From a virus (lineage: Duplodnaviria; Heunggongvirae; Uroviricota; Caudoviricetes), in IMG/VR virus record IMGVR_UViG_2563366864_000005, positions 1 through 23,935 of that record: a stretch of DNA of 23,935 nt; one strand, given 5' to 3'. Shown here in pieces: positions 2,268-23,935 of this stretch. Under the pieces are notes generated by a model. That model was not told the origin of the DNA and did no database searches. It saw only the letters and a list, made by a program, of their open reading frames with translations. Each line of letters starts with the position of its first letter. Position 1 is the first letter of the stretch. Both the position numbers and the translations under genes were made by a program.

Positions 2268-2287
<20 letters not shown>

Positions 2288-3587: not shown

Positions 3588-3596
3588 GGGATGTTT

Positions 3597-3929: not shown

Positions 3930-3946
3930 CCTGACCCTTCATCACT

Positions 3947-3970: not shown

Positions 3971-3983
3971 ACGGGATTTTTTT

Positions 3984-5009
3984 ATGTCGATGTACACAAC
4001 CGCCCAGCTGCTGGCGGCAAATGAGAAGAAATTTAAGTTTGATCCGCTGTTTCTGCGTCTCTTTTTCCGTGAGAGCTATCCCTTCACCACGGAGAAAGTC
4101 TATCTCTCACAAATTCCGGGACTGGTAAACATGGCGCTGTACGTTTCGCCGATTGTTTCCGGTGAGGTTATCCGCTCCCGTGGCGGCTCCACCTCCGAAT
4201 TTACGCCGGGATATGTCAAGCCGAAGCATGAGGTGAATCCGCAGATGACCCTGCGTCGCCTGCCGGATGAAGATCCACAGAATCTGGCAGACCCGGCTTA
4301 CCGCCGCCGTCGCATCATCATGCAGAACATGCGAGACGAAGAGCTGGCCATTGCTCAGGTCGAAGAGATGCAGGCCGTTTCTGCCGTGCTTAAGGGCAAA
4401 TACACCATGACCGGTGAAGCCTTCGATCCGGTTGAGGTGGATATGGGCCGCAGTGCGGCGAATAACATCACGCAGTCCGGCGGCACGGAGTGGAGCAAGC
4501 GTGACAAGTCCACGTATGACCCGACCGACGATATCGAAGCCTACGCGCTGAACGCCAGCGGCGTGGTGAATATCATCGTGTTTGATCCGAAAGGTTGGGC
4601 GCTGTTCCGTTCCTTCAAAGCCGTCAAGGAGAAGCTGGATACCCGTCGCGGCTCTAATTCCGAGCTGGAGACAGCGGTAAAAGACCTGGGCGAAGCGGTG
4701 TCCTATAAGGGGATGTATGGCGATACGGCGATCGTCGTGTATTCCGGACAGTACGTGGAAAACGACGTCAAAAAGAACTTTCTGCCGGACAACACGATGG
4801 TGCTGGGGAACACTCAGGCACGCGGTCTGCGCACCTATGGATGCATTCAGGATGCGGACGCACAGCGCGAAGGTATTAACGCCTCTGCCCGCTACCCGAA
4901 AAACTGGGTGACCACCGGCGATCCGGCGCGTGAGTTCACCATGATTCAGTCAGCACCGCTGATGCTGCTGGCTGACCCTGATGCGTTCGTGTCCGTACAA
5001 CTGGCGTAA
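3984..5009 (+). CDS. E: Major capsid protein E
   Basis: 341 aa, MSMYTTAQLLAANEKKFKFDPLFLRLFFRESYPFTTEKVYL...; lambda gpE homologue, same length. Confidence 0.97.
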   Translation: MSMYTTAQLLAANEKKFKFDPLFLRLFFRESYPFTTEKVYLSQIPGLVNMALYVSPIVSGEVIRSRGGSTSEFTPGYVKPKHEVNPQMTLRRLPDEDPQNLADPAYRRRRIIMQNMRDEELAIAQVEEMQAVSAVLKGKYTMTGEAFDPVEVDMGRSAANNITQSGGTEWSKRDKSTYDPTDDIEAYALNASGVVNIIVFDPKGWALFRSFKAVKEKLDTRRGSNSELETAVKDLGEAVSYKGMYGDTAIVVYSGQYVENDVKKNFLPDNTMVLGNTQARGLRTYGCIQDADAQREGINASARYPKNWVTTGDPAREFTMIQSAPLMLLADPDAFVSVQLA

Positions 5010-5015
5010 TCATGG

Positions 5016-5044
5016 CCCTTCGGGGCCATTGTTTCTCTGTGGAG
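5016..5044 (+). terminator. Hairpin with UUCG tetraloop plus T-rich tail, directly after E
   Basis: atggccc(5016-5022) / ttcg / gggccat(5027-5033) then tgtttctctgt; candidate partial terminator or stability element. Confidence 0.4.
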
Positions 5045-5050
5045 GAGTCC

Positions 5051-5440
5051 ATGACGAAAGATGAGCTGATTGCCCGTCTCCGCTCGCTGGGTGAACAACT
5101 GAACCGTGATGTCAGCCTGACGGGGACGAAAGAAGAACTTGCGCTCCGTGTGGCAGAGCTGGAAGAGGAGCTTGATGACACTGTCGATCAGGATACCCCT
5201 ATCAGCCCGGAAAATGCGCTGACCGGGCATGAAAATGAGGTGGTATCAGCGCAGCCGGATACCGTGATTCAGGATACTGCTGAACTGGTCACGGTCGTGG
5301 CACTGGTGACGCTGCATACCGATGCACTTCACGCCACGCGGGATGAACCTGTGGCATTTGTGCTGCCGGGAACGGCGTTTCGTGTCTCTGCCGGTGTGGC
5401 AGCCGAAATGACAGAACGTGGCCTGGCCAGAATGCAATAA
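5051..5440 (+). CDS. FI: DNA packaging protein FI
   Basis: ORF track starts at 5012, but the lambda-like N-terminus MTKDELIARLRSLGEQLNRDVSLTGTKEELALRVAEL begins at ATG 5051 with ggaggag Shine-Dalgarno 7 nt upstream. Confidence 0.9.
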   Translation: MTKDELIARLRSLGEQLNRDVSLTGTKEELALRVAELEEELDDTVDQDTPISPENALTGHENEVVSAQPDTVIQDTAELVTVVALVTLHTDALHATRDEPVAFVLPGTAFRVSAGVAAEMTERGLARMQ

Positions 5441-5451
5441 CGGGAGGCGCT

Positions 5452-5805
5452 GTGGCTGATTTCGATAACCTGTTCGATGCTGCCATTGCCCGCGCCGATG
5501 AAACGATACGCGGGTACATGGGAACGTCAGCCACCATGACATCCGGTGAGCAGTCCGGTGCTGTGATACGTGGTGTTTTTGATGACCCTGAAAATATCAG
5601 CTATGCCGGACAGGGCGTGCGCGTTGAAGGCTCCAGCCCGTCCCTGTTTGTCCGGACTGATGATGTGCGGCAGCTGCGGCGCGGCGACACGCTGACCATC
5701 GGTGAGGAAAACTTCTGGATAGACCGGATTTCGCCGGATGATGGCGGAAGCTGTCATCTCTGGCTTGGGCGTGGCGTGCCGCCTGCCGTTAACCGTCGTC
5801 GCTGA
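5452..5805 (+). CDS. FII: Head-tail joining protein FII
   Basis: 117 aa, MADFDNLFDAAIARADETIRGYMGTSATMTSGEQSGAVIRGVF...; matches lambda gpFII in length and sequence. Confidence 0.93.
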   Translation: MADFDNLFDAAIARADETIRGYMGTSATMTSGEQSGAVIRGVFDDPENISYAGQGVRVEGSSPSLFVRTDDVRQLRRGDTLTIGEENFWIDRISPDDGGSCHLWLGRGVPPAVNRRR

Positions 5806-5816
5806 AAGGGGGATGT

Positions 5817-6395
5817 ATGGCCATAAAAGGTCTTGAGCAGGCCGTTGAAAACCTCAGCCGTATCAGCAGAACGGCGGTGCCTGGTGCGTCCGCAATGGCC
5901 ATTAACCGCGTTGCTTCATCCGCGATATCGCAGTCGGCGGCACAGGTTGCCCGTGAGACAAAGGTACGCCGGAAACTGGTAAAGGAAAGGGCCAGGCTGA
6001 AAAGGGCCACGGTCAAAAATCCGCAGGCCAGAATCAAGGTTAACCGGGGGGATTTGCCCGTAATCAAGCTGGGGAATGCGCGGGTTGTCCTGTCCCGCCG
6101 CAGGCGTCGTAAAAAGGGGCAGCGTTCATCCCTGAAAGGTGGCGGTAGCGTGCTTGTGGTGGGAAACCGTCGTATTCCCGGCGCGTTTATTCAGCAACTG
6201 AAAAATGGCCGGTGGCATGTCATGCAGCGTGTGGCCGGGAAAAACCGTTACCCCATTGATGTGGTGAAAATCCCGATGGCGGTGCCGCTGACCACGGCGT
6301 TTAAACAGAATATTGAGCGGATACGGCGTGAACGTCTTCCGAAAGAGCTGGGCTATGCGCTGCAGCATCAACTGAGAATGGTAATAAAGCGATGA
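5817..6395 (+). CDS. Z: Tail completion protein Z
   Basis: 192 aa, MAIKGLEQAVENLSRISRTAVPGASAMAINRVASSAISQ...; lambda gpZ homologue. Confidence 0.93.
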   Translation: MAIKGLEQAVENLSRISRTAVPGASAMAINRVASSAISQSAAQVARETKVRRKLVKERARLKRATVKNPQARIKVNRGDLPVIKLGNARVVLSRRRRRKKGQRSSLKGGGSVLVVGNRRIPGAFIQQLKNGRWHVMQRVAGKNRYPIDVVKIPMAVPLTTAFKQNIERIRRERLPKELGYALQHQLRMVIKR

Positions 6396-6787
6396 AACAT
6401 ACTGAACTCCGTGCAGCCGTACTGGATGCACTGGAGAAGCATGACACCGGGGCGACGCTTTTTGATGGTCGCCCCGCTGTTTTTGATGAGGCGGATTTTC
6501 CGGCAGTTGCCGTTTATCTCACCGGCGCTGAATACACGGGCGAAGAGCTGGACAGCGATACCTGGCAGGCGGAGCTGCATATCGAAGTTTTCCTGCCTGC
6601 TCAGGTGCCGGATTCAGAGCTGGATGCGTGGATGGAGTCCCGGATTTATCCGGTGATGAGCGATATCCCGGCACTGTCAGATTTGATCACCAGTATGGTG
6701 GCCAGTGGCTATGACTACCGGCGCGACGATGATGCGGGCCTGTGGAGTTCAGCCGATCTGACGTATGTCATTACCTATGAAATGTGA
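6392..6787 (+). CDS. U: Tail terminator protein U
   Basis: 131 aa, [54 protein letters not shown]...; ATGA overlap with Z. Confidence 0.95.
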
Positions 6788-6794
6788 GGACGAT

Positions 6795-7535
6795 ATGCCA
6801 ACACCAAATCCTCTGGCACCGGTGAAAGGGGCCGGAACCACCCTGTGGGTTTATAAGGGGAACGGTGACCCTTATGCGAACCCGCTTTCAGACGTTGACT
6901 GGTCGCGTCTGGCAAAAGTTAAAGACCTGACGCCCGGCGAACTGACCGCAGAGTCCTATGACGACAGTTATCTCGATGATGAAGATCCGGACTGGGCCGC
7001 GACCGGGCAGGGGCAGAAATCCGCCGGAGATACCAGCTTCACGCTGGCGTGGATGCCCGGAGAGCAGGGGCAGCAGGCGCTGCTGGCGTGGTTTAATGAA
7101 GGTGATACCCGTGCCTATAAAATCCGCTTCCCGAACGGCACGGTCGATGTGTTCCGTGGCTGGGTCAGCAGTATCGGTAAGGCGGTGACAGCGAAGGAAG
7201 TGATCACCCGTACGGTGAAGGTCACCAATGTGGGACGTCCGTCGATGGCAGAAGATCGCAGCACGGTAACAGCGGCAACCGGCATGACCGTGACGCCTGC
7301 CAGCACCTCGGTGGTTAAAGGGCAGAGCACGACGCTGACCGTGGCATTCCAGCCGGAAGGCGCAACCGACAAGAGCTTCCGTGCGGTGTCTGCGGATAAA
7401 ACAAAAGCCACCGTGTCGGTCAGTGGTATGACCATCACCGTGAAAGGTGTTGCTGCAGGCAAGGTCAACATTCCGGTCGTATCCGGTAATGGTGAGTTTG
7501 CTGCGGTTGCAGAAATCAACGTCACCGCCAGTTAA
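6795..7535 (+). CDS. V: Major tail tube protein V with C-terminal Ig-like domain
   Basis: ORF track starts 6765, but lambda-like N-terminus [22 protein letters not shown] begins at ATG 6795 (gagga Shine-Dalgarno); 246 aa as lambda gpV. Confidence 0.94.
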
Positions 7536-7550
7536 TCCGGAGAATCAGCG

Positions 7551-7973
7551 ATGTTCCTGAAAACCGAATCATTTGAACATAACGGCGTGACCGTCACGCT
7601 TTCTGAACTGTCAGCCCTGCAGCGTATTGAGCATCTCGCCCTGATGAAACGACAGGCAGAACAGGCGGACTCCGACAGCAACCAACAGGTTGCTTTGGCA
7701 GACCTTATCAGAACCGGTGCTTTTGTGGTGGCGATGTCCCTGTGGCATAACCATCCGAAGAAGACGCAGATGCCGTCCATGAATGAAGCCGTTAAACAGA
7801 TTGAGCAGGAAGTGCTTACCACCTGGCCCGCGGAGGCAATTTCTCATGCTGAAAACGTGGTGTACCGGCTGTCCGGTATGTATGAGTTTGTGGTGAATGA
7901 TGCTCCTGAACAGACAGAGGACGCCGGGCCTGCAGAGCCTGTTTCTGCGGGAAAGTGTTCGACGGTGAGCTGA
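7551..7973 (+). CDS. G: Tail assembly chaperone G
   Basis: 140 aa, MFLKTESFEHNGVTVTLSELSALQRIEHLALMKRQAEQ...; lambda gpG homologue. Confidence 0.93.
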   Translation: MFLKTESFEHNGVTVTLSELSALQRIEHLALMKRQAEQADSDSNQQVALADLIRTGAFVVAMSLWHNHPKKTQMPSMNEAVKQIEQEVLTTWPAEAISHAENVVYRLSGMYEFVVNDAPEQTEDAGPAEPVSAGKCSTVS

Positions 7974-8389
7974 GTTTTGCCCTGAAACTGGCGCGAGAGA
8001 TGGGGCGACCCGACTGGCGCGCCATGCTTGCCGGGATGTCATCCACGGAGTACGCCGACTGGCACCGCTTTTACAGTACCCATTATTTTCATGATGTTCT
8101 GCTGGATATGCACTTTTCCGGGCTGACGTACACCGTACTCAGCCTGTTTTTCAGCGATCCGGATATGCATCCGCTGGATTTCAGTCTGCTGAACCGGCGC
8201 GAGGCTGACGAAGAGCCTGAAGATGATGTGCTGATGCAGAAAGCGGCAGGGCTTGCCGGAGGTGTCCGCTTTGGTCCGGACGGGAATGAAGTTATCCGCG
8301 CTTCCCCGGATGTGGCTGACATGACGGAGGATGACGTAATGCTGATGACAGTATCAGAAGGGATCGCAGGAGGAGTCCGGTATGGCTGA
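7551..8389 (+). CDS. Tail assembly protein G-T, made by programmed -1 ribosomal frameshift from G into the T frame
   Basis: Slippery heptamer G GGA AAG at 7949-7955 is in the G frame, 6 codons before the G stop; the -1 frame continues as GKVFDGELSFALKLAREMGRPDWRAMLAGMSS... to the stop at 8389, matching lambda gpT; the T frame has no credible start of its own. Confidence 0.8.
7949..7955 (+). other. Slippery heptanucleotide GGGAAAG for the G to G-T -1 frameshift
   Basis: Sequence gcgGGGAAAGtg at 7946-7957; codons GGA and AAG are in the G frame. Confidence 0.8.
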
Positions 8390-10961
8390 ACCGGTAGGCG
8401 ATCTGGTCGTTGATTTGAGTCTGGATGCGGCCAGATTTGACGAGCAGATGGCCAGAGTCAGGCGTCATTTTTCCGGTACGGAAAGTGATGCGAAAAAAAC
8501 AGCGGCAGTCGTTGAACAGTCTCTGAGCCGACAGGCGCTGGCTGCACAGAAAGCGGGGATTTCCGTCGGGCAGTATAAAGCTGCCATGCGTATGCTGCCT
8601 GCGCAGTTCACCGACGTGGCCACGCAGCTTGCAGGCGGGCAAAGTCCGTGGCTGATCCTGCTGCAACAGGGTGGTCAGGTGAAGGACTCCTTCGGCGGGA
8701 TGATCCCCATGTTCAGGGGGCTTGCCGGTGCGATCACCCTGCCGATGGTGGGGGCCACCTCGCTGGCGGTGGCGACCGGTGCGCTGGCGTATGCCTGGTA
8801 TCAGGGCAACTCAACCCTGTCCGATTTCAACAAAACGCTGGTCCTTTCCGGCAATCAGTCGGGTCTGACGGCAGATCGTATGCTGGTCCTGTCCAGAGCC
8901 GGGCAGGCGGCAGGGCTGACGTTTAACCAGACCAGCGAGTCACTCAGCGCACTGGTTAAGGCGGGAGTAAGCGGTGAGACTCAGATTGCATCCATCAGCC
9001 AGAGTGTGGCGCGTTTCTCCTCTGCATCCGGCGTGGAGGTGGACAAGGTTGCTGAAGCCTTCGGGAAGCTGACCACAGACCCGACGTCGGGGCTGACGGC
9101 GATGGCGCGCCAGTTCCATAACGTGACGGCGGAGCAGATTGCGTATGTCGCTCAGTTGCAGCGTTCCGGCGATGAAGCCGGGGCATTGCAGGCGGCGAAC
9201 GAGGCCGCAACGAAAGGGTTTGATGACCAGACCCGCCGCCTGAAAGAGAACATGGGCACGCTGGAGACCTGGGCAGACAGGACAGCACGGGCATTCAAAT
9301 CCATGTGGGATTCGGTGCTGGATATTGGTCGCCCGGACACTGCCCAGGAAATGCTGGAGAAAGCAGAAAAGGCTTTTGATGAGGCGGACAAAAAATGGCA
9401 GTGGTATCAGAGCCGGAGCCACCGGCGCGGTAAAACCTCAGCATTTCTTGCCAATCTCCGGGGAGCATGGGAGGACAGAGCGAATGCGCAACTTGGGCTT
9501 TCAGCCGCCACGTTGCAGGCCGATCTTGAAAAGGCCAGAGAGATGGCAGCAAAGGACTGGGCCGAGTCTGAGGCATCACGGCTGAAATATACCGAAGAGG
9601 CGCAGAAGGCTTACGAACGCCTGCAGACGCCGCTGGAGAAATATACCGCCCGTCAGGAAGAACTGAACAAGGCACTGAAAGACGGAAAAATCCTGCAGGC
9701 AGATTACAACACGCTGATGGCGGCGGCGAAAAAGGATTATGAAGCGACGCTGAAAAAGCCGAAACAGTCCGGCGTGAAGGTGTCTGCGGGCGATCGTCAG
9801 GAAGACAGAGCTCATGCCGCCCTGCTGACGCTTCAGGCAGAACTCCGGACGCTGGAGAAGCATGCCGGAGCGAATGAGAAAATCAGCCAGCAGCGCCGGG
9901 ATTTGTGGAAAGCGGAAAATCAGTTCGCAGTACTGGAGGAGGCGGCACAACGTCGCCAGCTGTCTGCACAGGAGAAATCCCTGCTGGCGCATAAAGATGA
10001 GACGCTGGAGTACAAACGCCAGCTGGCTGCACTTGGCGACAAGGTTACGTATCAGGAGCGCCTGAACGCGCTGGCGCAGCAGGCGGATAAATTCGCACAG
10101 CAGCAACGGGCAAAACGGGCCGCCATTGATGCGAAAAGCCGGGGGCTGACTGACCGGCAGGCAGCGCGGGAAGCCACGGAACAGCGCCTGAAGGAACAGT
10201 ATGGCGATAATCCGCTGGCGCTGAATAACGTCATGTCAGAGCAGAAAAAGACCTGGGCGGCTGAAGACCAGCTTCGCGGGAGCTGGATGGCAGGCCTGAA
10301 GTCAGGCTGGAGTGAGTGGGAAGAGAGCGCCACGGACAGTATGTCGCAGGTTAAAAGTGCAGCCACGCAGACCTTTGATGGTATTGCACAGAATATGGCG
10401 GCGATGCTGACCGGCAGTGAACAGAACTGGCGCAGCTTCACCCGTTCCGTGCTATCCATGATGACAGAAATTCTGCTTAAGCAGGCAATGGTGGGGATTG
10501 TCGGGAGTATCGGCAGCGCCATTGGCGGGGCTGTTGGTGGCGGCGCATCCGCGTCAGGCGGTACAGCCATTCAGGCCGCTGCGGCGAAATTCCATTTTGC
10601 AACCGGAGGATTTACGGGAACCGGCGGCAAATATGAGCCAGCGGGGATTGTTCACCGTGGTGAGTTTGTCTTTACGAAGGAGGCAACCAGCCGGATTGGC
10701 GTGGGGAATCTTTACCGGCTGATGCGCGGCTATGCCACCGGCGGTTATGTCGGTACACCGGGCAGCATGGCAGACAGCCGGTCGCAGGCGTCCGGGACGT
10801 TTGAGCAGAATAACCATGTGGTGATTAACAACGACGGCACGAACGGGCAGATAGGTCCGGCTGCTCTGAAGGCGGTGTATGACATGGCCCGCAAGGGTGC
10901 CCGTGATGAAATTCAGACACAGATGCGTGATGGTGGCCTGTTCTCCGGAGGTGGACGATGA
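8382..10961 (+). CDS. H: Tail tape measure protein H
   Basis: 859 aa, MAEPVGDLVVDLSLDAARFDEQMARVRRHFSG...; coiled-coil rich middle, glycine-rich C-terminal region; lambda gpH homologue (recalled as 853 aa). Confidence 0.95.
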   Translation: MAEPVGDLVVDLSLDAARFDEQMARVRRHFSGTESDAKKTAAVVEQSLSRQALAAQKAGISVGQYKAAMRMLPAQFTDVATQLAGGQSPWLILLQQGGQVKDSFGGMIPMFRGLAGAITLPMVGATSLAVATGALAYAWYQGNSTLSDFNKTLVLSGNQSGLTADRMLVLSRAGQAAGLTFNQTSESLSALVKAGVSGETQIASISQSVARFSSASGVEVDKVAEAFGKLTTDPTSGLTAMARQFHNVTAEQIAYVAQLQRSGDEAGALQAANEAATKGFDDQTRRLKENMGTLETWADRTARAFKSMWDSVLDIGRPDTAQEMLEKAEKAFDEADKKWQWYQSRSHRRGKTSAFLANLRGAWEDRANAQLGLSAATLQADLEKAREMAAKDWAESEASRLKYTEEAQKAYERLQTPLEKYTARQEELNKALKDGKILQADYNTLMAAAKKDYEATLKKPKQSGVKVSAGDRQEDRAHAALLTLQAELRTLEKHAGANEKISQQRRDLWKAENQFAVLEEAAQRRQLSAQEKSLLAHKDETLEYKRQLAALGDKVTYQERLNALAQQADKFAQQQRAKRAAIDAKSRGLTDRQAAREATEQRLKEQYGDNPLALNNVMSEQKKTWAAEDQLRGSWMAGLKSGWSEWEESATDSMSQVKSAATQTFDGIAQNMAAMLTGSEQNWRSFTRSVLSMMTEILLKQAMVGIVGSIGSAIGGAVGGGASASGGTAIQAAAAKFHFATGGFTGTGGKYEPAGIVHRGEFVFTKEATSRIGVGNLYRLMRGYATGGYVGTPGSMADSRSQASGTFEQNNHVVINNDGTNGQIGPAALKAVYDMARKGARDEIQTQMRDGGLFSGGGR

Positions 10962-11287
10962 AGACCTTCCGCTGGAAAGTGAAACCCGGTATGGATGTGG
11001 CTTCGGTCCCTTCTGTAAGAAAGGTGCGCTTTGGTGATGGCTATTCTCAGCGAGCGCCTGCCGGGCTGAATGCCAACCTGAAAACGTACAGCGTGACGCT
11101 TTCTGTCCCCCGTGAGGAGGCCACGGTACTGGAGTCGTTTCTGGAAGAGCACGGGGGCTGGAAATCCTTTCTGTGGACGCCGCCTTATGAGTGGCGGCAG
11201 ATAAAGGTGACCTGCGCAAAATGGTCGTCGCGGGTCAGTATGCTGCGTGTTGAGTTCAGCGCAGAGTTTGAACAGGTGGTGAACTGA
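10958..11287 (+). CDS. M: Minor tail protein M
   Basis: 109 aa, MKTFRWKVKPGMDVASVPSVRKVRFGDGYSQRAPAGLNANLKTYS...; ATGA overlap with H. Confidence 0.95.
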   Translation: MKTFRWKVKPGMDVASVPSVRKVRFGDGYSQRAPAGLNANLKTYSVTLSVPREEATVLESFLEEHGGWKSFLWTPPYEWRQIKVTCAKWSSRVSMLRVEFSAEFEQVVN

Positions 11288-11985
11288 TGCAGGATATCCG
11301 GCAGGAAACACTGAATGAATGCACCCGTGCGGAGCAGTCGGCCAGCGTGGTGCTCTGGGAAATCGACCTGACAGAGGTCGGTGGAGAACGTTATTTTTTC
11401 TGTAATGAGCAGAACGAAAAAGGTGAGCCGGTCACCTGGCAGGGGCGACAGTATCAGCCGTATCCCATTCAGGGGAGCGGTTTTGAACTGAATGGCAAAG
11501 GCACCAGTACGCGCCCCACGCTGACGGTTTCTAACCTGTACGGTATGGTCACCGGGATGGCGGAAGATCTGCAGAGTCTGGTCGGCGGAACGGTGGTCCG
11601 GCGTAAGGTTTACGCCCGTTTTCTGGATGCGGTGAACTTCGTCAACGGAAACAGTGACGCCGATCCGGAGCAGGAGGTAATCAGCCGCTGGCGCATCGAG
11701 CAGTGCAGCGAACTGAGCGCGGTGAGTGCCTCCTTTGTACTGTCCACGCCGACGGAAACGGATGGCGCTGTTTTTCCGGGACGTATCATGCTGGCCAACA
11801 CCTGCACCTGGACCTATCGCGGTGACGAGTGCGGTTATAGCGGTCCGGCTGTCGCGGATGAATATGACCAGCCGACGTCCGATATCACGAAGGATAAATG
11901 CAGCAAATGCCTGAGTGGCTGTAAGTTCCGCAATAACGTCGGCAACTTTGGCGGCTTCCTTTCCATTAACAAACTTTCGCAGTAA
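11287..11985 (+). CDS. L: Minor tail protein L
   Basis: 232 aa, MQDIRQETLNECTRAEQSASVVLWEIDLTEVGGERYFF...; cysteine cluster near the C-terminus (CTWTYRGDECGY...CSKCLSGC) as in lambda gpL. Confidence 0.95.
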   Translation: MQDIRQETLNECTRAEQSASVVLWEIDLTEVGGERYFFCNEQNEKGEPVTWQGRQYQPYPIQGSGFELNGKGTSTRPTLTVSNLYGMVTGMAEDLQSLVGGTVVRRKVYARFLDAVNFVNGNSDADPEQEVISRWRIEQCSELSAVSASFVLSTPTETDGAVFPGRIMLANTCTWTYRGDECGYSGPAVADEYDQPTSDITKDKCSKCLSGCKFRNNVGNFGGFLSINKLSQ

Positions 11986-11990
11986 ATCCC

Positions 11991-12734
11991 ATGACACAGA
12001 CAGAATCAGCGATTCTGGCGCACGCCCGGCGATGTGCGCCAGCGGAGTCGTGCGGCTTCGTGGTGAGAACGCCGGAGGGGGAAAGATATTTTCCCGGCGT
12101 GAATATTTCCGGTGAGCCGGAGGCGTATTTCCGTATGTCGCCGGAGGACTGGCTGCAGGCAGAAATGCAGGGTGAGATTGTGGCGCTGGTCCACAGCCAC
12201 CCCGGTGGTCTGCCCTGGCTGAGTGAGGCCGACCGGCGGCTGCAGGTGCAGAGTGATTTGCCGTGGTGGCTGGTCTGCCGGGGAGTGATTCATAAGTTCC
12301 GCTGTGTGCCGCATCTCACCGGGCGGCGCTTTGAGCACGGGGCGACGGACTGTTACACGCTGTTCCGGGATGCTTATCATCTGGCGGGGATTGAGATGCC
12401 GGATTTTCATCGCGGGGATGACTGGTGGCGTCACGGTCAGAATCTCTATCTGGATAATCTGGAGGCAACGGGGCTGTATCAGGTGCCGTTGTCATCGGCG
12501 CAGCCGGGCGATGTGCTGCTGTGCTGCTTTGGTTCATCGGTGCCGAATCATGCCGCTATTTACTGTGGTGATGGCGAGCTGCTGCACCATATTCCTGAAC
12601 AACTGAGCAAACGAGAGAGGTATACCGACAAATGGCAGCGACGCACACACTCCCTCTGGCGTCACCGGGCATGGCACGCATCTGCCTTTACGGGGATTTA
12701 CAACGATTTGGCCGCCGCATCGACCTTCGTGTGA
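11991..12734 (+). CDS. K: Tail tip assembly protein K with JAB/MPN metalloprotease-like and NlpC/P60-like regions (long form; lambda-annotated internal start would be 12135)
   Basis: Full ORF 247 aa from an ATG 6 nt after the L stop; JAMM-type motif HSHPGGLPWLSEAD at residues 68-81 with candidate upstream Glu19; Cys/His region GATDCYTLF...HHIPE; the lambda-style start MSPEDWLQ is ATG 12135; 3' end overlaps I by 103 nt. Confidence 0.88.
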   Translation: MTQTESAILAHARRCAPAESCGFVVRTPEGERYFPGVNISGEPEAYFRMSPEDWLQAEMQGEIVALVHSHPGGLPWLSEADRRLQVQSDLPWWLVCRGVIHKFRCVPHLTGRRFEHGATDCYTLFRDAYHLAGIEMPDFHRGDDWWRHGQNLYLDNLEATGLYQVPLSSAQPGDVLLCCFGSSVPNHAAIYCGDGELLHHIPEQLSKRERYTDKWQRRTHSLWRHRAWHASAFTGIYNDLAAASTFV

Positions 12735-13273
12735 AAACGGGGGCTGAAGCCATCCGGGCACTGGCCACACAGCTCCCGGCGTTTCGTCAGAAACTGAATG
12801 ACGGCTGGTATCAGGTGCGCATTGCCGGGCGTGATGCAGGAGAAAACGAATTATCTGCCCGTCTTAATGAGCCGCTGGCAAATGGTGCCGTGATCCACAT
12901 CGTACCGCGTCTGGCGGGTGCCAAAAGTGGCGGTATTTTTCAGGCAGTGCTGGGTGCGGCGCTAATTGCTACGGCAATCTGGATGCCGGGGCTTAGTATT
13001 GTTGCAAGTAATCTCATGTTCTCTCTTGGGGCAGGTATGGTTTTAGGCGGTGTTGCGCAGATGCTGGCACCGAAAGCCAAAACGCCTAAAGTGTCAGCCA
13101 CTGATAACGGTAAGCAAAATACCTATTTTTCCTCATTGGATAACATGGTTGCCCAGGGCAATGTCCTGCCTGTTCTGTACGGTGAAATGCGCGTGGGGTC
13201 ACGTGTGGCATCTCAGGAGATTAGCACGGCAGATGAAGGGGATGGTGGTCAGGTTGTGGTAATTGGGCGGTAA
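12632..13273 (+). CDS. I: Tail tip assembly protein I
   Basis: 213 aa, MAATHTLPLASPGMARICLYGDLQRFGRRIDLRVKTGAEAIRALATQLPAFRQKL...; lambda gpI homologue. Confidence 0.93.
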   Translation: MAATHTLPLASPGMARICLYGDLQRFGRRIDLRVKTGAEAIRALATQLPAFRQKLNDGWYQVRIAGRDAGENELSARLNEPLANGAVIHIVPRLAGAKSGGIFQAVLGAALIATAIWMPGLSIVASNLMFSLGAGMVLGGVAQMLAPKAKTPKVSATDNGKQNTYFSSLDNMVAQGNVLPVLYGEMRVGSRVASQEISTADEGDGGQVVVIGR

Positions 13274-13345: not shown

Positions 13346-13684
13346 ATGAACAAAACGATTTTATTCTGCACGATTATTGCCTTAACAGGATGTAAATCTT
13401 TGGATTACGTAAAATCCGGCAAGCCTGTAATGGAAGGTAATTCATTAAAAAATATTGATGTATTGTCAGGCTGCATATCCAGACAATGGGCTGGTAATGG
13501 AACACCTATAACATCCATTCCTATTGAGAATGGGGTAAGCCTTTTAGTTCCACAGGCTATGGGTGGGTATGATGTTGTGCTTGATATCAAAAAAGCAGGA
13601 AATGGCAGTAGTTTTACTCTTTATGAACGCGTACCAGCATTAACGCCAAAAATTTTTGCTGATAGTGTTAATGCATGTAAATAA
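13346..13684 (+). CDS. Small lipoprotein of unknown function (moron between I and J)
   Basis: ORF track starts at TTG 13334; first ATG at 13346 gives MNKTILFCTIIALTGCKS..., i.e. a signal peptide with lipobox LTGC and Lys at +2; markedly AT-rich versus neighbours; absent from lambda, where I and J are about 60 bp apart. Confidence 0.7.
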   Translation: MNKTILFCTIIALTGCKSLDYVKSGKPVMEGNSLKNIDVLSGCISRQWAGNGTPITSIPIENGVSLLVPQAMGGYDVVLDIKKAGNGSSFTLYERVPALTPKIFADSVNACK

Positions 13685-17952: not shown

Positions 17953-17961
17953 GGAGTGGAT

Positions 17962-20343
17962 ATGGCAGCAGTAAAAATCTCAGGTGTGCTGAAAGATGGT
18001 GCGGGAAAACCAATACAGAACTGCACTATTCAACTGAAGGCAAAGCGTAACAGCACCACGGTACTGGTGAACACGGTTGCCTCTGAAAATCCGGATGAAG
18101 CCGGGCGTTACAGCATGGATGTTGAGTATGGTCAGTACAGCGTTATCCTGCTTGTTGAAGGTTTTCCGCCTTCACATGCCGGGACCATTACCGTCTATGA
18201 AGGCTCCAGACCAGGTACGCTGAATGATTTTCTCGGTGCCATGACGGAAGATGATGTCATGCCGGAGGCATTGCGTCGTTTTGAGGAAATGGTGGAAGAA
18301 GCGGCACGCAACGCTGAAGCCGCCTCTCAGAGCGCAGCGGCGGCAAAGAAATCCGAAACTGCAGCGGCATCATCGAAGAATGCGGCGAAAACCTCAGAAA
18401 CGAATGCAGCTAACAGCGCACAGGCGGCAGCGGCCTCGCAGACTGCATCGGCAAACTCCGCGACAGCAGCCAAAAAATCAGAAACCAACGCGAAAAACAG
18501 CGAGACAGCCGCAAAGACGAGCGAAACCAACGCAAAGTCCAGCCAGACGGCAGCGAAAACCAGCGAAACGAATGCCAAAGCCAGTGAAACTGCGGCGAAA
18601 AACAGCCAGGATGCAGCGGCCCAAAGCGAGAGTGACGCAGCTGGTTCTGCAAGTGCGGCGGCTTCTTCTGCCACTGCATCAGCCAACAGTCAAAAAGCTG
18701 CAAAAACCAGCGAAACCAACGCAAAGTCCAGCCAGACGGCAGCGAAAACCAGCGAAACGAATGCCAAAGCCAGTGAAACTGCGGCGAAAAGCAGTCAGGA
18801 TGCAGCAGCCGAAAGCGAGAGTGCTGCAGCTGGCTCTGCAAGCGCGGCGGCTGCTTCTGCCACTGCATCAGCCAACAGTCAAAAAGCTGCAAAAACCAGT
18901 GAAACCAACGCAAAGGCGAGTGAGACTGCGGCGGCTAACTCGGCGAAAGCATCCGCTGCAAGCCAGACGGCTGCAAAAGCAAGTGAAGACGCAGCCAGAG
19001 AGTATGCAAGCCAGGCTGCGGAGCCGTATAAACAAGTATTGCAGCCGCTTCCCGATGTGTGGATACCGTTTAACGATTCACTGGATATGATTACGGGCTT
19101 TTCGCCGTCATATAAAAAGATTGTTATTGGTGATGATGAAATAACGATGCCTGGCGATAAGATTGTAAAGTTTAAACGCGCATCAAAAGCAACTTACATT
19201 AATAAATCTGGTGTGCTGACAGAGGCTGCCATTGACGAGCCACGGTTTGAATGTGATGGCCTGCTTATTGAGGGGCAAAGAACAAACTACATGCTCAATT
19301 CGGAAAACCCTGCCAGTTGGGGGCGATCGTCAAATATGGATGTGCCCGAAACAGGGACGGATAGTTTTGGTTTTACCTATGGAAAGTTTGTCTGCAACGA
19401 TTCTCTGATTGGGCAAACCTCAGCCATTAATATGGCATCAATTGCTGCAACAAAGTCAGTTGATGTCTCAGGCGATAATAAACACGTGACAACCTCATGT
19501 CGTTTTAAAACAGAACTGCAGGTAAGGTTGCGTATCCGGTTTGATAAATATGACGGTAGCGCAACAACTTTTCTTGGTGATGCGTATATTGATACACAAA
19601 CGCTTGAAATTAATATGACAGGCGGTGCTGCCTCAAGGATTACTGCGAGAGTCAGAAAGGACGAAGCTACCGGATGGATTTTTGCAGAGGCAACAATTCA
19701 GGCAATTGATGGGGAGTTAAAAATAGGTTCTCAGATACAGTATTCTCCTAAGCAGGGCGGGGCAACCGTATCTGGTGACTATATTTATCTGGCCACCCCA
19801 CAAGTAGAAAATGGGCCTTGTGTATCATCTTTTATTATATCAGGAACGACGGCGGCGACCCGCGCAAGCGATATAGTTACAGTTCCCATTAAGAATAATC
19901 TTTATAATCTTCCTTTTACGGTTCTTTGTGAGGTACATAAGAACTGGTATAAAACGCCAAATGCAGCGCCGCGTGTTTTTGATACAGGCGGTCATCAAAC
20001 CGGAGCGGCTATTATTCTTGGGTTCGGATCTTCGGCAGATGGGCCAGACGGATTTCCTTATTGCGATATTGGAGGAGCTAACAGACGGGTAAACGAAAAC
20101 GCATCGCTTGAAAAAATGGTTATGGGGATGCGTGTAAAATCAGATCAGTCTACGTGCTCAGTAAGTAACGGGCGCATATCCAGCGAAAAAAAGACTACGT
20201 GGTCCTATATTCAGAACTCTGCAACCATCCGTATTGGAGGCCAGACTACAGCAGGGTTACGTCATTTATTTGGTCATATCAGGAATTTCAGAATATGGCA
20301 CAAGGCATTGACTGATGCTCAGGTGGGGGAGTCAATCCAATGA
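17962..20343 (+). CDS. stf: Side tail fiber protein: lambda Stf-like N-terminal anchor, Ser/Ala/Thr-rich repeat shaft, divergent C-terminal receptor-binding region with concanavalin-A/LamG-like motif
   Basis: ATG 17962 with GGAG 8 nt upstream (track start is GTG 17956); N-terminus MAAVKISGVLKDGAGKPIQNCTIQLKAKRNSTTVLVNTVASENPDEAGRYSMDVEYGQYSVIL matches lambda Stf; SETNAK-type repeats in the middle; C-terminal ...LRHLFGHIRNFRIWHKALTDAQV resembles the lectin/LamG-like jelly-roll signature. Confidence 0.85.
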   Translation: MAAVKISGVLKDGAGKPIQNCTIQLKAKRNSTTVLVNTVASENPDEAGRYSMDVEYGQYSVILLVEGFPPSHAGTITVYEGSRPGTLNDFLGAMTEDDVMPEALRRFEEMVEEAARNAEAASQSAAAAKKSETAAASSKNAAKTSETNAANSAQAAAASQTASANSATAAKKSETNAKNSETAAKTSETNAKSSQTAAKTSETNAKASETAAKNSQDAAAQSESDAAGSASAAASSATASANSQKAAKTSETNAKSSQTAAKTSETNAKASETAAKSSQDAAAESESAAAGSASAAAASATASANSQKAAKTSETNAKASETAAANSAKASAASQTAAKASEDAAREYASQAAEPYKQVLQPLPDVWIPFNDSLDMITGFSPSYKKIVIGDDEITMPGDKIVKFKRASKATYINKSGVLTEAAIDEPRFECDGLLIEGQRTNYMLNSENPASWGRSSNMDVPETGTDSFGFTYGKFVCNDSLIGQTSAINMASIAATKSVDVSGDNKHVTTSCRFKTELQVRLRIRFDKYDGSATTFLGDAYIDTQTLEINMTGGAASRITARVRKDEATGWIFAEATIQAIDGELKIGSQIQYSPKQGGATVSGDYIYLATPQVENGPCVSSFIISGTTAATRASDIVTVPIKNNLYNLPFTVLCEVHKNWYKTPNAAPRVFDTGGHQTGAAIILGFGSSADGPDGFPYCDIGGANRRVNENASLEKMVMGMRVKSDQSTCSVSNGRISSEKKTTWSYIQNSATIRIGGQTTAGLRHLFGHIRNFRIWHKALTDAQVGESIQ
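18520..18897 (+). repeat. Two tandem copies of a 189-bp in-frame coding repeat (63 aa) inside stf, flanked by more degenerate copies
   Basis: agcgaaaccaacgcaaagtccagccagacggcagcgaaaaccagcgaaacgaatgccaaagccagtgaaactgcggcgaaaa... begins at 18520 and again at 18709 with a handful of substitutions. Confidence 0.85.
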
Positions 20344-20621
20344 AAGATTTAACACTCAAATTTGCAGACAGGGCCGACTTTTCGGCCTTTATGGAGAGCA
20401 CTGGCTATTATGATGACGAGTCGATGCAGGATAATATTCTTATTGACGTGATAGGTAACGTGTACAAAGAAACCGGAGAACTGACTGAAGATGGCGAACC
20501 GGTATGTGTTAAGGAAGACGGATATTTTGTAAACGTGCGCATCATTAATGATGCAAAAAAATCGTCAATATTCGATAAATACGCGGTTGTTGTTGAGCAT
20601 CAACTTCGTGGCTGGATGTGA
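20340..20621 (+). CDS. Hypothetical acidic 93-aa protein, translationally coupled to stf (possible fiber assembly factor)
   Basis: ATG overlaps the stf stop in an ATGA arrangement at 20340-20343; no recognisable motif; low-GC like the stf 3' end. Confidence 0.5.
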   Translation: MKDLTLKFADRADFSAFMESTGYYDDESMQDNILIDVIGNVYKETGELTEDGEPVCVKEDGYFVNVRIINDAKKSSIFDKYAVVVEHQLRGWM

Positions 20622-21345: not shown

Positions 21346-21633
21346 ATGGATATAACACCTTTTCTTCATGCGCTTTGTGCTGTGGCTGCGCAGGTACTGA
21401 TTGGCCTTTTTACCGGAAACTGGGTTTACGGGGCGATAGCTGGTTGTACGTTCTTCATTGCGCGTGAACACACCCAGGCAGAATATCGCTGGATTGAAAT
21501 GTTCGGGCATGGCAAGCGTATGAATATGCCGTGGTGGGGCGGTTTTGATCCACGTGCTTGGGATGTGGCAAGCCTGATGGATTTTGCGGTGCCGGTGGTA
21601 GCGTGTCTGCTGGTCTGGCTGTTTATCCGTTAA
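21346..21633 (+). CDS. Hypothetical small membrane protein (95 aa, two predicted transmembrane helices)
   Basis: aaaggagg Shine-Dalgarno then ATG; hydrophobic segments ALCAVAAQVLIGLFTGNWVYGAIAGCTFFIA and LMDFAVPVVACLLVWLFI; function not recognisable. Confidence 0.55.
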   Translation: MDITPFLHALCAVAAQVLIGLFTGNWVYGAIAGCTFFIAREHTQAEYRWIEMFGHGKRMNMPWWGGFDPRAWDVASLMDFAVPVVACLLVWLFIR

Positions 21634-21641
21634 ACATAAAA

Positions 21642-21690
21642 AGCCGCAGCAACTTGTCATGGCAGGATACTGCGGCTGGTTTGTGAGTTT
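21642..21690. terminator. Possible bidirectional terminator between the convergent + strand fiber operon and the - strand RT operon
   Basis: 8-bp stem agccgcag(21642-21649) / ctgcggct(21670-21677) with an unusually long 20-nt loop; A-run upstream and gtttgtgagttt downstream. Confidence 0.35.
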
Positions 21691-21740
21691 AAATAGTGTG
21701 TTTATTACGGTATATTTAAAGGACTTAATGGATTACATAT

Positions 21741-23117
21741 CTATGATATTCCTGAAATATCCTCTTCAAGTTCTTTTACTGATTTCGCAATTTTAAATTT
21801 AAATTTCCTCTCTATTTCACTATTGCTAAGTTTTTTTTCCTTCTCTTTCCCTATCCACATAGAAACAAGTTCTCGTTTCTGAGATATATGTAGATTGTCA
21901 AAGTTAGGTATGTATTTAAAAGTCTCCGCTCTACCTCTGCGGAGTTCATAGAAAGTTTTAATCAAAGACTTTGGTTTTATTTCTGATAAAAGGCCGAATC
22001 GGCGGATAAGATTATTGATAGTATGATTAACAGAGCGAAGTTGAGCTGTTGAGGTTATTTGTGAGAAGTACGATACCCATCCCAATCGTTTACCTTCAAA
22101 CACACATCCCGTAATTCTGAGATTTAGTTTCCACTGACAATATGCAACAGCTCGTTCTTTATCGCGCTTACTTTTAGCTTGTAGTAGAGCGTGCCTATAT
22201 GCAGTAAAAATTTTTGCTAAGGATGACTCAAATCTAAGAATGCTCTCATGTTTTATCAATAATTCTCGATTTTCTATGTGGTATCCCAAAAAGTTAAAAC
22301 TTTCATCCAAGCTGCCTACTTTGGATTTTGAGTTCTCTTCATTTAATGGATGTGGGTTTAAATTTAATGATTGAAGCTTATCAATGATATGAGATGCTAT
22401 TTTTGTTGCTTGATATTTGGGCGTTAAAATAAGAATGTCATCAACGTATCGCATGTACCATATGCCATGCATTTTATTGATTTCATCATCGAAATTAGAT
22501 AGTGATATTTCAGCTAAAATGTTTGATATCGCTAATCCCTGAGGTACTCCTCTGGTATTATTAGGGATACCTTTGCTTCCTGTACTTCCACTTACAGTAG
22601 GTACGATTAATGATGATGTTATTAACTGTCTAATTTCTTTTTTTCTAATCTTATTTTTTATTGCATTAAATATCAATTTATGTTCAATTGAAGGATAGAA
22701 ACTTTTAAGATCTATTTTTGCATATTCAGCATATAGACTGCAGTTTAATGCTTCTTTCAATGAGTCAATTACTGTATGTGGTAGTTTTAATCTGGAATTA
22801 GGATATATTTCCGTAAGGCATTCACAGAGAGCCCTAAGAGTAATTCTGTCCCTAGCAGTTGGTATGGAAATCTGTCTGGGGGTAGAGTTAGCCCCTTTAG
22901 ATATTAATTTTTCTTTATATGCTGTAAATTTATAATTACCAGAATTAACCTTTTCAAAAATGAAAGTGATCTCATTGTTTATTGTTAAATCAAGTTTTGA
23001 TGGGCGAATCCGATCTATGCCAATCGCTCCTGATTCTTTGATTTTTTCAGTGTATACTTTTAGAAGGTTTTTTTTCGAGAATGACTTTTTAAAAATTCTA
23101 CTTGCAGTCATAGTCAA
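21741..23117 (-). CDS. Reverse transcriptase (458 aa), stand-alone RT domain of prokaryotic defence-associated type (retron-like or UG/Abi-like; class unresolved)
   Basis: RT motifs in order: PRQISIPTARDRITLRAL (motif 1), YAEYAKIDLKSFYPSI (motif 2, Asp136), GVPQGLAISNILAEI (motif B), YMRYVDDILIL (motif C, YVDD at + coords 22437-22448), FLGYHI (motif 7), then RITG in the thumb region; about 30% GC; start overlaps the upstream membrane-protein gene by 20 nt. Confidence 0.85.
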   Translation of the reverse strand: MTMTASRIFKKSFSKKNLLKVYTEKIKESGAIGIDRIRPSKLDLTINNEITFIFEKVNSGNYKFTAYKEKLISKGANSTPRQISIPTARDRITLRALCECLTEIYPNSRLKLPHTVIDSLKEALNCSLYAEYAKIDLKSFYPSIEHKLIFNAIKNKIRKKEIRQLITSSLIVPTVSGSTGSKGIPNNTRGVPQGLAISNILAEISLSNFDDEINKMHGIWYMRYVDDILILTPKYQATKIASHIIDKLQSLNLNPHPLNEENSKSKVGSLDESFNFLGYHIENRELLIKHESILRFESSLAKIFTAYRHALLQAKSKRDKERAVAYCQWKLNLRITGCVFEGKRLGWVSYFSQITSTAQLRSVNHTINNLIRRFGLLSEIKPKSLIKTFYELRRGRAETFKYIPNFDNLHISQKRELVSMWIGKEKEKKLSNSEIERKFKFKIAKSVKELEEDISGIS

Positions 23118-23640
23118 TCCAAAGATATATTAATGGTAGTATATAAAGTGCGGCAGTAATAAATATTCGAAGTAATATCCATAAATTAACAATTATTTTT
23201 TCTTTTTGTGTGGGGAGCCTCGTCGTAAGTCCAACTTGAGTTACCCTTGAAACTTTATCATCTATCTCACGATGATTCTCAACCTCATTGAGCAAATTAA
23301 AATATTTTTCTTTCTGTTCAGGAGTTAATTGTTGGCCGTTGGTAATGTCAAAATAGAGTCGCTGTAGTGCAATATAATTCCTTCTCATGGCTATTGCTCG
23401 ACCACGAAAATCTAGGTTAGATACGATCAGAGAAATACCTAGTAGAGCCACTGAAAGTATCGCTGCAACGATATCTGTATTATCTCCTAGAACTTTTGGA
23501 AATCGTAACGTTACAATTGAAAGCACCGCACTCAATATAGCATACCAAACGAGGATAAATTGAGAGTGTTTTTCAAGCCATTCTAGTCGATGGTGCGCTT
23601 GGATACGGGCTTTATATGTAAACCAAATATTGTCATGCAT
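23098..23640 (-). CDS. Small membrane protein (180 aa), N-terminal amphipathic helix plus two transmembrane helices and a C-terminal transmembrane helix; SLATT-like candidate effector partner of the RT
   Basis: MHDNIWFTYKARIQAHHRLEWLEKHSQ then hydrophobic FILVWYAILSAVLSIVTL and IVAAILSVALLGISLIVSNL, basic loop RGRAIAMRRNY, C-terminal IIVNLWILLRIFITAALYILPLIYLWI; AGGA ribosome-binding site upstream of the ATG at 23640; 3' end overlaps the RT start. Confidence 0.65.
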   Translation of the reverse strand: MHDNIWFTYKARIQAHHRLEWLEKHSQFILVWYAILSAVLSIVTLRFPKVLGDNTDIVAAILSVALLGISLIVSNLDFRGRAIAMRRNYIALQRLYFDITNGQQLTPEQKEKYFNLLNEVENHREIDDKVSRVTQVGLTTRLPTQKEKIIVNLWILLRIFITAALYILPLIYLWIDYDCK

Positions 23641-23666
23641 AAAAGATCCTTTTTTAAAAGCGGAAG

Positions 23667-23702
23667 GGGCAGGATATATTGGAACCGTTGAACATCCTGC
23701 CC
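23667..23702 (-). promoter_or_regulatory. Perfect 9-bp-stem hairpin in the 5' leader of the membrane-protein/RT operon
   Basis: gggcaggat(23667-23675) / 18-nt loop / atcctgccc(23694-23702), followed on the - strand by ttccgctttt and then the ribosome-binding site; could be an attenuator, an upstream terminator or part of a structured RNA. Confidence 0.4.
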
Positions 23703-23935
23703 GGCAGGATCAGTGAGCATAAGCTCAACAGTAAAATATTACTGTTCATTATCAGAGCCGCCCTTGCATGCGCAAGAGGAAAAACCTGCCCCATCCTTTT
23801 GAATTATTACAATTTAATGATCTTAAAGTCAATACAAGTGAATGGTGTCCAGGGATGATGAACTTAATGAACAAACCACTCGTCAGCAGACTCCCAAGTA
23901 TCTTTCAGAGTTTCCTGAACAACAGTTTTAGCTGA

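Follow-up and report, generated by a model that had tools for sequence, protein, structure and literature searches.

Organization of the locus

The window, that is, the whole 23,935-nt stretch of virus record IMGVR_UViG_2563366864_000005 that was analysed, carries a compact cassette on its minus strand. Two overlapping genes encode a membrane protein and a reverse transcriptase (RT), and they are followed by a terminator-like hairpin. A non-coding RNA (ncRNA) gene, described below, precedes them. The protein-coding part comprises the following features:

23098..23640, minus strand: SLATT_5 membrane protein, presumed effector, 180 aa
21741..23111, minus strand: reverse transcriptase assigned to UG17 / DRT10, 456 aa from the ATG at 23111 (458 aa from the TTG at 23117)
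22448-22437, minus strand: YVDD catalytic motif of the RT, invariant in 23 sequences
21746-21744, minus strand: C-terminal Ser456 of the RT, predicted priming residue, the last residue of the protein and invariant in 23 sequences
21638..21677, minus strand: terminator-like hairpin (AGCCGCAG...CUGCGGCU) followed by UUUUU, 3' of the RT stop and between convergent genes

The initial annotation had described open reading frames of 458 and 180 aa on the minus strand with a 20-nt overlap, and these coordinates were exactly reproduced. The longer frame (21741-23117) begins with a TTG, and an ATG is found two codons further on. RefSeq and the authors of the Eco3 study use this ATG at 23111, which yields an RT of 456 aa and an overlap of 14 nt. 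The RT active site had been regarded as complete, and its motifs were indeed all found: D134 (the former D136, in 456-aa numbering), QG, YVDD and FLGY, unchanged across 23 homologs, the most distant of which has 59% identity. The LE-DI--S tail of the RT was equally invariant in the 23 homolog sequences. The AF2 model of the protein had a pLDDT of 85.6. In the 180-aa protein, for which three transmembrane segments had been proposed, hydropathy analysis located three hydrophobic segments (residues about 27-45, 55-73 and 153-171).

The hairpin 3' of the RT gene folded with -19.2 kcal/mol (z = -3.31) and may act as a terminator. It was overlooked by a consensus terminator scan because of its long loop, and was retrieved by folding.

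The cassette lies at the end of the E. coli prophage and is convergent with the tail genes. The gene order was J, lom, a tail fibre gene, a tail-fibre-domain gene, the cassette, a dinI-like gene and the chromosomal prfC, in line with the prophage cargo position suggested before. The AT-rich character attributed to the two genes (about 30% GC against 55-60%) was also borne out, with measured values of 32.8% for the RT and 36.3% for the SLATT gene versus 57.7% for bases 1-13000. Three small open reading frames of the window (13346-13684, 20340-20621 and 21346-21633) gave no PADLOC or Pfam match. In the strain matching the window, no integrase was found at the cassette end of the prophage.

The non-coding RNA and its putative promoter

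Upstream of the SLATT gene, two further features were located:

23796->23660, minus strand: DRT10 ncRNA, 137 nt, just upstream of SLATT
23803..23832, minus strand: sigma-70-type promoter-like site of the ncRNA, with -35 TTGACT at 23832-23827, an 18-nt spacer and an extended -10 TGtAATAAT at 23811-23803

The ncRNA folds into a basal stem, in which nt 1-12 pair with nt 124-135, along with four hairpins inside it (SL2-SL5) and a template loop that is single-stranded. Its minimum free energy was -57.2 kcal/mol (z = -4.58). An unguided RNAalifold run on 25 loci recovered the helices, and 16 of the 32 pairs were compensatory. Across 25 diverged loci, 97.2% of the cells were paired, whereas slid controls reached 49-57%. 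The number of pairs with changes on both sides was 17, compared with 4-9 in the same controls. A covariance model (R1), built from UG17 loci with the window and all E. coli sequences excluded, matched exactly 23796-23660 on the minus strand (113 bits, E 4.7e-27). Both the length and the position of this RNA agree with the 137-nt ncRNA upstream of SLATT that was defined by RIP-seq for Eco3.

The promoter-like site was the best in the region (10 of 12 positions plus the TG extension) and was identical across six E. coli alleles. If it is used as a promoter, transcription of the ncRNA is predicted to start at the G at about 23796. A search of Rfam 15 returned no match, neither for the locus at a permissive E-value nor for the whole window at the gathering score. 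This result is uninformative with regard to the ncRNA, because DRT10 ncRNAs are absent from Rfam.

Assignment to DRT10

Profile searches of both proteins, which the initial annotation had proposed, gave clear assignments. The RT matched the PADLOC profile RT_UG17 over its full length (positions 1-429 of 429, 526 bits, E 1.4e-158). The runner-up in PADLOC was Drt3a (125 bits, E 1e-36), and Drt2 and Drt9 scored 87 and 71.7 bits, versus 526 for RT_UG17. The membrane protein matched SLATT_5 of Pfam (99 bits, E 2e-28) and of NCBIfam (136.5 bits, cutoff 60), as well as RTasSLATT, the PADLOC profile of RT-associated SLATT proteins (190 bits, E 4.6e-57). Compared with the Eco3 system, the RT was 98.0% identical (391/399) to OKX54664.1 and the SLATT protein 95.0% identical (171/180).

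UG17 has been named DRT10, experimentally dissected and tied to telomerase evolution in 2025-26. The features by which a DRT10 system is recognized were found together in the window, namely the UG17 profile, a SLATT_5 neighbour with gene overlap, the ncRNA, an A-B-A' template, and a C-terminal serine along with YVDD. Judged from these features, the cassette is almost certainly a DRT10 (UG17) anti-phage system of three parts, which is cargo of a lambdoid prophage and allelic to Eco3 DRT10. The system has already been characterized and the copy in the window is not new. The RT had earlier been considered unplaceable in a named DRT class from sequence alone and perhaps an undescribed variant, a view that the RT_UG17 score and the Eco3 allele overturn. 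Likewise, what had been taken for a two-gene operon has three parts, since the ncRNA that supplies the template lies outside the coordinates given at that time and was overlooked.

The pairing of the two proteins was conserved as well. SLATT was found immediately upstream of the RT in each of the 26 loci whose RT was 50% identical or more; a lack of conserved partnership in other genomes had been named at the outset as evidence against the defence reading. The cassette was carried by 188 of 5426 complete E. coli genomes, at lambdoid prophage ends. A megablast search against one collection of deposited phage genomes found none with the cassette, and only the dinI-like end gave matches. For annotation, it follows that the cassette should be labelled DRT10, that a 137-nt ncRNA gene should be added at 23660-23796 and that the start of the RT should be shifted to 23111.

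Template loop and predicted repeat

The template lies in the loop that follows the last hairpin on its 3' side:

23678..23690, minus strand: A-B-A' template, ncRNA nt 107-119, CAAC-GGUUC-CAAU

Its parts are A (CAAC), B (GGUUC) and A' (CAAU), and their numbering agrees with that of the published positions U110, C116, A117 and U119. Of the 24 homologous loci listed, 19 have an A-B-A' element of the (U)CAA type, with a period of 9-11, that begins at the same loop position (the second or third loop base, which for the window is nt 106-107). In Eco3-type alleles, which were taken from complete E. coli genomes, CAAUGAUUC-CAAU is found at the same position of the ncRNA. The window differs from Eco3 by two changes in the template, U to C at nt 110 and A to G at nt 112. 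As a consequence of these changes, the predicted product becomes (GAACCGTTG)n instead of the (GAATCATTG)n of Eco3; the cDNA repeat of the window allele would be 5'-GAACCGTTG-3'. They also leave A and A' matching at three of four bases, versus four in Eco3, with a possible dG:rU wobble at the fourth. A rival register, GUUC...GUUC with an 8-nt period, is present in the window allele and would predict (CGTTGAAC)n.

Proposed mechanism

The present analysis itself established the family membership, the ncRNA with its fold, the position of the template and the conservation. The subsequent steps are proposed by analogy with the published systems. The 137-nt ncRNA would be transcribed from its own promoter directly upstream of SLATT and be bound by the 456-aa RT. 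DNA synthesis would be primed from the hydroxyl of the C-terminal serine of the RT itself (S456), and the enzyme would copy the 9-nt template, running from nt 115 back to nt 107 (CAACGGUUC), within the loop that directly follows SL5. The nascent 3' end could then pair anew with the A' repeat further downstream (CAAU, nt 116-119), and telomerase-like cycling would generate long single-stranded (GAACCGTTG)n DNA covalently linked to the RT. This repeat DNA would be made constitutively and be acted upon by the host exonuclease I (SbcB). Phage infection would alter how much of it is present or what state it is in, which in one homolog occurs via a phage SSB-like protein. The altered repeat DNA would in turn be coupled to SLATT, whose most likely effect is to open or perturb the membrane so that the infection is aborted; the whole step from cDNA to SLATT is presumed.

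In Eco3, defence against BASEL phages was abolished by YVAA, by deletion of SLATT or of the ncRNA, or by scrambled stem-loops, and 9-nt tandem repeats and priming at S456 were described, the priming role of the serine being known from Eco3 only (Tang et al., bioRxiv 10.1101/2025.10.16.682844). The loss of defence in this 98%-identical allele upon YVDD>YVAA mutation or SLATT deletion agrees with the original proposal of an anti-phage cassette that joins a SLATT membrane protein to a nucleic-acid-synthesising RT. RT-dependent tandem-repeat ssDNA has been demonstrated for Eco1-3 and E3659. In near-identical or homologous systems none of the three parts is dispensable, the A-B-A' scheme has been confirmed and an interaction with SbcB has been reported. 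Two published DRT10 studies conflict on the response to infection, the cDNA going down in one and up in the other.

Alternative explanations

A decayed or attenuated copy of DRT10 that no longer defends is very unlikely, even if some traits of the window allele could be read in that way. The SLATT protein has 180 aa, stopping three codons sooner than the 183 aa of all six other E. coli alleles compared, and private substitutions were found in the RT (N45, C124, G216 and L375) and in SLATT (P107, E125 and N152). In addition, A and A' are mismatched at the fourth base. Against this, both reading frames are intact, and all the invariant residues of the RT, including YVDD and S456, are present. 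The SLATT residues that are missing (QNF) fall beyond the last hydrophobic segment, and G216 is also found in functional-looking Pseudomonas homologs. As to the mismatch, mutants with 3-nt A/A' homology or an altered fourth base were still active in the published A-B-A' mutagenesis of Eco3 (Tang et al., bioRxiv 10.1101/2025.10.16.682844). The template allele of the window occurs in most carrier genomes, including the distinct protein alleles AR434 and ST131, and is therefore maintained. Finally, the DNA of the window was found at 100% identity in six complete genomes.

It is extremely improbable that the locus, read as DRT10 above, is instead a retron or another class of RT defence (DRT3, DRT9 or Abi) with a 2TM effector. 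Cross-matches were obtained with retron_St85_RT, Drt3a and Drt9 (71.7 bits), and SenDRT9 was among the nearest solved folds to the RT. These cross-matches are weak, as retron_St85_RT reached 60.8 bits versus a cut-off of 235 and Drt3a 111 versus 200, against 526 bits for UG17. Neither an msr/msd nor any other Rfam family was matched in the locus or in the whole window. The initial annotation had already noted a departure from the best-known retron layout, and the sub-threshold retron profile together with the absence of an Rfam retron RNA is consistent with that remark. DRT3 (UG3+UG8) requires both Drt3a and Drt3b, and the locus has a single RT gene. With respect to DRT9, the template loop of the window is not poly-U. 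Moreover, the ncRNA matches a covariance model made from UG17 loci.

A group II intron maturase or other mobile retroelement RT devoid of a defence role, a grouping that had been named at the outset as evidence against the defence reading, can practically be dismissed: among solved structures, the sequences nearest to the RT are those of group II intron RTs, yet TIGR04416 gave 142 bits versus a cut-off of 300 and GIIM only a weak match (E 0.04, 14.3 bits versus 23), Rfam detected no intron RNA in the locus or the whole window, the RT consistently shares its operon with SLATT plus an unrelated ncRNA, and the 98%-identical allele has demonstrated defence.

Relation to known systems

The closest relative of the DRT10 cassette of the window is Eco3 DRT10 (E. 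coli 703491, RT OKX54664.1). Both share the ncRNA-SLATT-RT order with overlapping genes, an ncRNA of 137 nt whose helices agree, the template at nt 107-119, the C-terminal serine and YVDD. Both are carried by a prophage with an adjoining dinI-like gene, Eco3-type alleles being found at prfC or dusA. They differ by 8 substitutions in the RT and 9 in SLATT, and by the three residues that the SLATT of the window lacks.

The UG17-A DRT10 of Escherichia sp. E3659 shares the three-part ncRNA-SLATT-RT module, and is described with tandem-repeat cDNA, control by SbcB (ExoI) and a SLATT effector; it differs in having a 143-nt ncRNA with six stem-loops and 7-nt repeats (Sanchez-Nieto et al., bioRxiv 10.64898/2026.04.29.721553). 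The published E3659 ncRNA probe sequence had no counterpart in the ncRNA of the window.

DRT9 (UG28) and DRT2 (UG2) are, like DRT10, class 2 UG/Abi RT systems with ncRNA-templated repetitive cDNA. DRT9 is also protein-primed, but from a tyrosine; it produces poly-dA from a poly-U template and forms hexamers. DRT2 differs in that rolling-circle copying of a 120-nt template builds a gene. According to the literature, DRT10 resembles telomerase (TERT plus telomerase RNA) in its repeat-addition processivity, its short template in a separate RNA, the flanking realignment sequence and a hairpin as template boundary. In contrast, telomerase is primed by chromosome ends rather than by a protein serine, has about 1100 aa versus 456 aa, and does not share the role of DRT10, which is defence with a membrane effector. 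A protein-primed telomerase-like RT with a repeat DNA product and a membrane effector partner makes DRT10 notable in itself.

Natural variation of the template

The sole notable variation among E. coli DRT10 ncRNAs was a two-base dimorphism in the 9-nt template, CAAUGAUUC versus CAACGGUUC, the window carrying the commoner of the two. Among seven sequences, only SLATT 161 and RT 300 tracked the template allele, which is explained by simple linkage and gives no signal. The dimorphism and the second realignment register (GUUC...GUUC, 8 nt) raise the improbable idea that the template might be under diversifying selection, for instance to alter the repeat DNA met by the SLATT effector or by phage-encoded ssDNA-binding proteins. 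If so, the allele of the window would yield a different or less precise product and have another phage range. In any case, a common natural template variant with a different predicted repeat offers ready material for studies of the repeat sequence.

Identification of the cassette

The low-GC pair of minus-strand genes near the end of the window is a DRT10 system, already known, and represents an allele of an experimentally tested one. UG17 was defined in 2021-22; its tight association with SLATT was noted then, as was the fact that it makes sbcB indispensable to some strains of E. coli. In 2025-26 two groups renamed it DRT10 and characterised it (Tang et al., bioRxiv 10.1101/2025.10.16.682844; Sanchez-Nieto et al., bioRxiv 10.64898/2026.04.29.721553). 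The published system has three parts, the RT, the SLATT membrane protein and, directly upstream of SLATT, an ncRNA of ~137 nt that is bound by the RT, is needed for defence and is the source of the template. All its sequence-level features are present in the window.

Features of the DRT10 cassette and its borders (all on the minus strand)
23864-23935: last 23 codons of a dinI-like gene, inside which the window ends
Ending at 23803: promoter-like site (-35 TTGACT, 18-nt spacer, extended -10 TGtAATAAT)
23796→23660: DRT10 ncRNA, 137 nt (fold, promoter, covariation, covariance model)
23678-23690: template A-B-A', ncRNA nt 107-119
23098-23640: SLATT ORF, 180 aa
21741-23117: RT ORF, 458 aa if started at TTG
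23111: ATG, corrected RT start, 456 aa
21746-21744: Ser456, last RT residue, matching the position of the published priming residue
21677-21638: terminator-like hairpin and U-run, 3' of the RT stop (z = -3.3)

In profile searches the RT matched PADLOC RT_UG17 over the whole 429-position profile (E 1.4e-158, 526 bits), the second-best PADLOC model being Drt3a with 125 bits. The small protein matched PADLOC RTasSLATT (E 4.6e-57), Pfam SLATT_5 (E 2e-28) and NCBIfam SLATT_5 (136.5 bits, cut-off 60). Eco3, the tested DRT10 of E. coli 703491 (listed in the supplement of Tang et al.), shares 391 of 399 comparable RT residues (OKX54664.1; 98.0%) and 171 of 180 SLATT residues (95.0%). The initial annotation had guessed well in proposing a defence cassette. 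It had also left the RT without a class, as a possible undescribed variant; the profile searches that it suggested assign each protein to a class that already has a name, and the full-length RT_UG17 match and the identity to the Eco3 RT refute that view.

Other readings of the RT were rejected because their scores lay well below the curated cut-offs: DRT3 (Drt3a, 111 bits against 200), a group II maturase (TIGR04416, 142 against 300) and a retron (retron_St85, 60.8 against 235). A confident AlphaFold model (pLDDT 85.6, pTM 0.78) was nearest in fold to G2L4 RT, SenDRT9 and GsI-IIC RT, and the nearest solved chains by sequence were group II intron RTs and Drt3a; the PDB copy searched held no DRT10 structure.

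The two ORFs

Both ORFs and their 20-nt overlap (with the TTG start) were recovered where first annotated, as were their low GC content (RT 32.8%, small ORF 36.3%, versus 57.7% for the structural genes in 1-13000), three hydrophobic segments in the small protein (about residues 27-45, 55-73 and 153-171, by hydropathy) and the RT active-site motifs. The latter (D134, QG, YVDD and FLGY in 456-aa numbering) were invariant in 23 homologs with identity down to 59%, and so was the C-terminal LE-DI--S motif that includes Ser456. According to Tang et al., two N-terminal residues of the annotated 458-aa RT are spurious; the RefSeq entry for an RT identical to that of the window starts at the ATG and has 456 aa. 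The hairpin and U-run after the RT stop plausibly form a terminator between convergent genes.

The SLATT gene of the window stops at a TAG (23098-23100, minus strand), giving 180 aa; six other alleles from E. coli were examined, and these continue for three codons (QNF) to 183 aa. The base changed lies at a synonymous position of the overlapping RT frame.

The ncRNA upstream of SLATT

The first description as a two-gene operon was right about both genes and overlooked the third part, the ncRNA; the present analysis contributes the annotation of this ncRNA, a correction of the RT start and the template allele. The 137-nt element folds into a basal stem around four hairpins (MFE -57.2 kcal/mol, z = -4.58); in 200 shuffles no fold was as good. 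It would be transcribed from the promoter-like site, the best in the region (10 of 12 positions matched), which ends seven bases ahead of the G at 23796.

The comparison with homologs drew on 44 genomic loci and an alignment of diverged RTs. At RT identities of at least 50%, SLATT lay directly upstream of the RT in 26/26 loci, so that the partnership raised as a check is kept in other genomes, and a conserved intergenic element preceded SLATT in the same 26/26. Unguided RNAalifold recovered the basal stem and the internal hairpins SL2, SL3 and SL5, leaving the template loop open, with compensatory changes in 16 of 32 pairs. With SL4 included, standard pairs occupied 97.2% of cells and 17 pairs changed on both sides, versus 49-57% and 4-9 in controls whose pairing partners were displaced by 1-3 columns; the covariation score was reached by 0/500 shuffles. 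A covariance model built from non-E. coli loci only, with the window left out, matched exactly 23796-23660 (minus strand) at full length (113 bits, E 4.7e-27), the runner-up anywhere in the window scoring 11.9 bits. Scanning the locus and the whole window against Rfam gave no family for this ncRNA.

In at least three complete genomes, an IS2 element separates the ncRNA promoter from the dinI-like gene (e.g. NZ_CP082087.1, locus L047, about 3250-4590; also H8 and H9). Inserted ~30 nt ahead of the -35, it leaves the promoter intact, and likewise the ncRNA, SLATT and RT.

Template alleles

Numbered from 23796, the window ncRNA reads C107-A-A-C110-G-G112-U-U-C115-C116-A117-A-U119. The published Eco3 template is CAAUGAUUC (A-B) followed by CAAU (A'), with U110, C116, A117 and U119 named, and the two registers coincide. 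Among complete genomes the E. coli DRT10 ncRNA is nearly invariant save for a template dimorphism at nt 110 and 112:
CAAUGAUUC, published Eco3 type: CFIAFB20180511 (at dusA), CE10 (at prfC)
CAACGGUUC, window type: AR434, 01G17CRGN001, an ST131 strain

The window allele is apparently the commoner among the 188 carrier genomes, as estimated from identity bands rather than counted. By the published mechanism, its product would be (GAACCGTTG)n, the cDNA 3' end GTTG re-annealing on CAAU with Watson-Crick pairs at three positions and a dG:rU wobble at the fourth; activity persisted in published mutants whose homology was three bases or whose fourth base was changed. Of the 24 homologous loci listed, 19 have an A-B-A' pattern of (U)CAA type, period 9-11, which begins at the same place in the loop, its second or third base (nt 106-107 for the window). 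The window allele also offers a second, competing register, GUUC...GUUC, of 8 nt.

Mode of action

For Eco3 or close homologs, defence depends on the RT active site, SLATT and the ncRNA. RT and ncRNA suffice for kilobase-long single-stranded tandem-repeat DNA, covalently linked to S456, and realignment is driven by A/A' homology. SL5 is needed for the repeat products, with a suggested role in setting the template boundary. DRT10 is toxic without SbcB, and one homolog depends on a phage SSB-like protein for its activation. On the reading adopted here, the window system would synthesise repeat DNA constitutively, with ExoI keeping it in check; phage proteins that bind or process ssDNA would perturb this state, and the outcome would be membrane damage via SLATT and abortive infection. 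For the presumed step from cDNA to SLATT, the two papers propose opposites: a fall in cDNA on infection that releases SLATT, versus a build-up that activates it.

Genomic setting and other features

The cassette with its ncRNA was found in 188 of 5426 complete E. coli genomes, chromosomal in every case. One genome matches the window base for base over 21600-23935; there J, lom, the tail fibre gene and a further gene with a tail-fibre domain precede the cassette, which is convergent with the tail genes and is followed by the dinI-like gene and chromosomal prfC; it therefore lies at the end of a lambdoid prophage. Across the loci examined it was placed between tail-fibre-region genes and the dinI-like gene, the prophage ends adjoining prfC, dusA or yecD/aspS. 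Within 21600-23935, matches to deposited phage genomes (Stx-converting and other lambdoid phages) are confined to the dinI-like stretch.

Tail-to-tail with the RT lies a 95-aa hydrophobic ORF (21346-21633, plus strand; phrog_1443, unknown function). At this position further E. coli carriers have an annotated hypothetical protein: in CE10 it is intact, in AR434 and MS20649 an internal stop makes it a pseudogene, and the CFIAFB20180511 pseudogene is frameshifted and partial. A low-GC ORF (13346-13684, plus strand; 112 aa; phrog_914, unknown function; 42% GC in the surrounding 500 bases), with no Pfam or PADLOC match, separates the tail assembly gene from gpJ and looks like a small moron within the tail module. 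The AT skew of 0.56 at 18501-19000 is due to A-rich tandem repeats of 21, 42 and 189 nt (18462-18915, plus strand) within the tail fibre gene (17956-20343); the repeats are of heptad type, as is usual in tail fibres.
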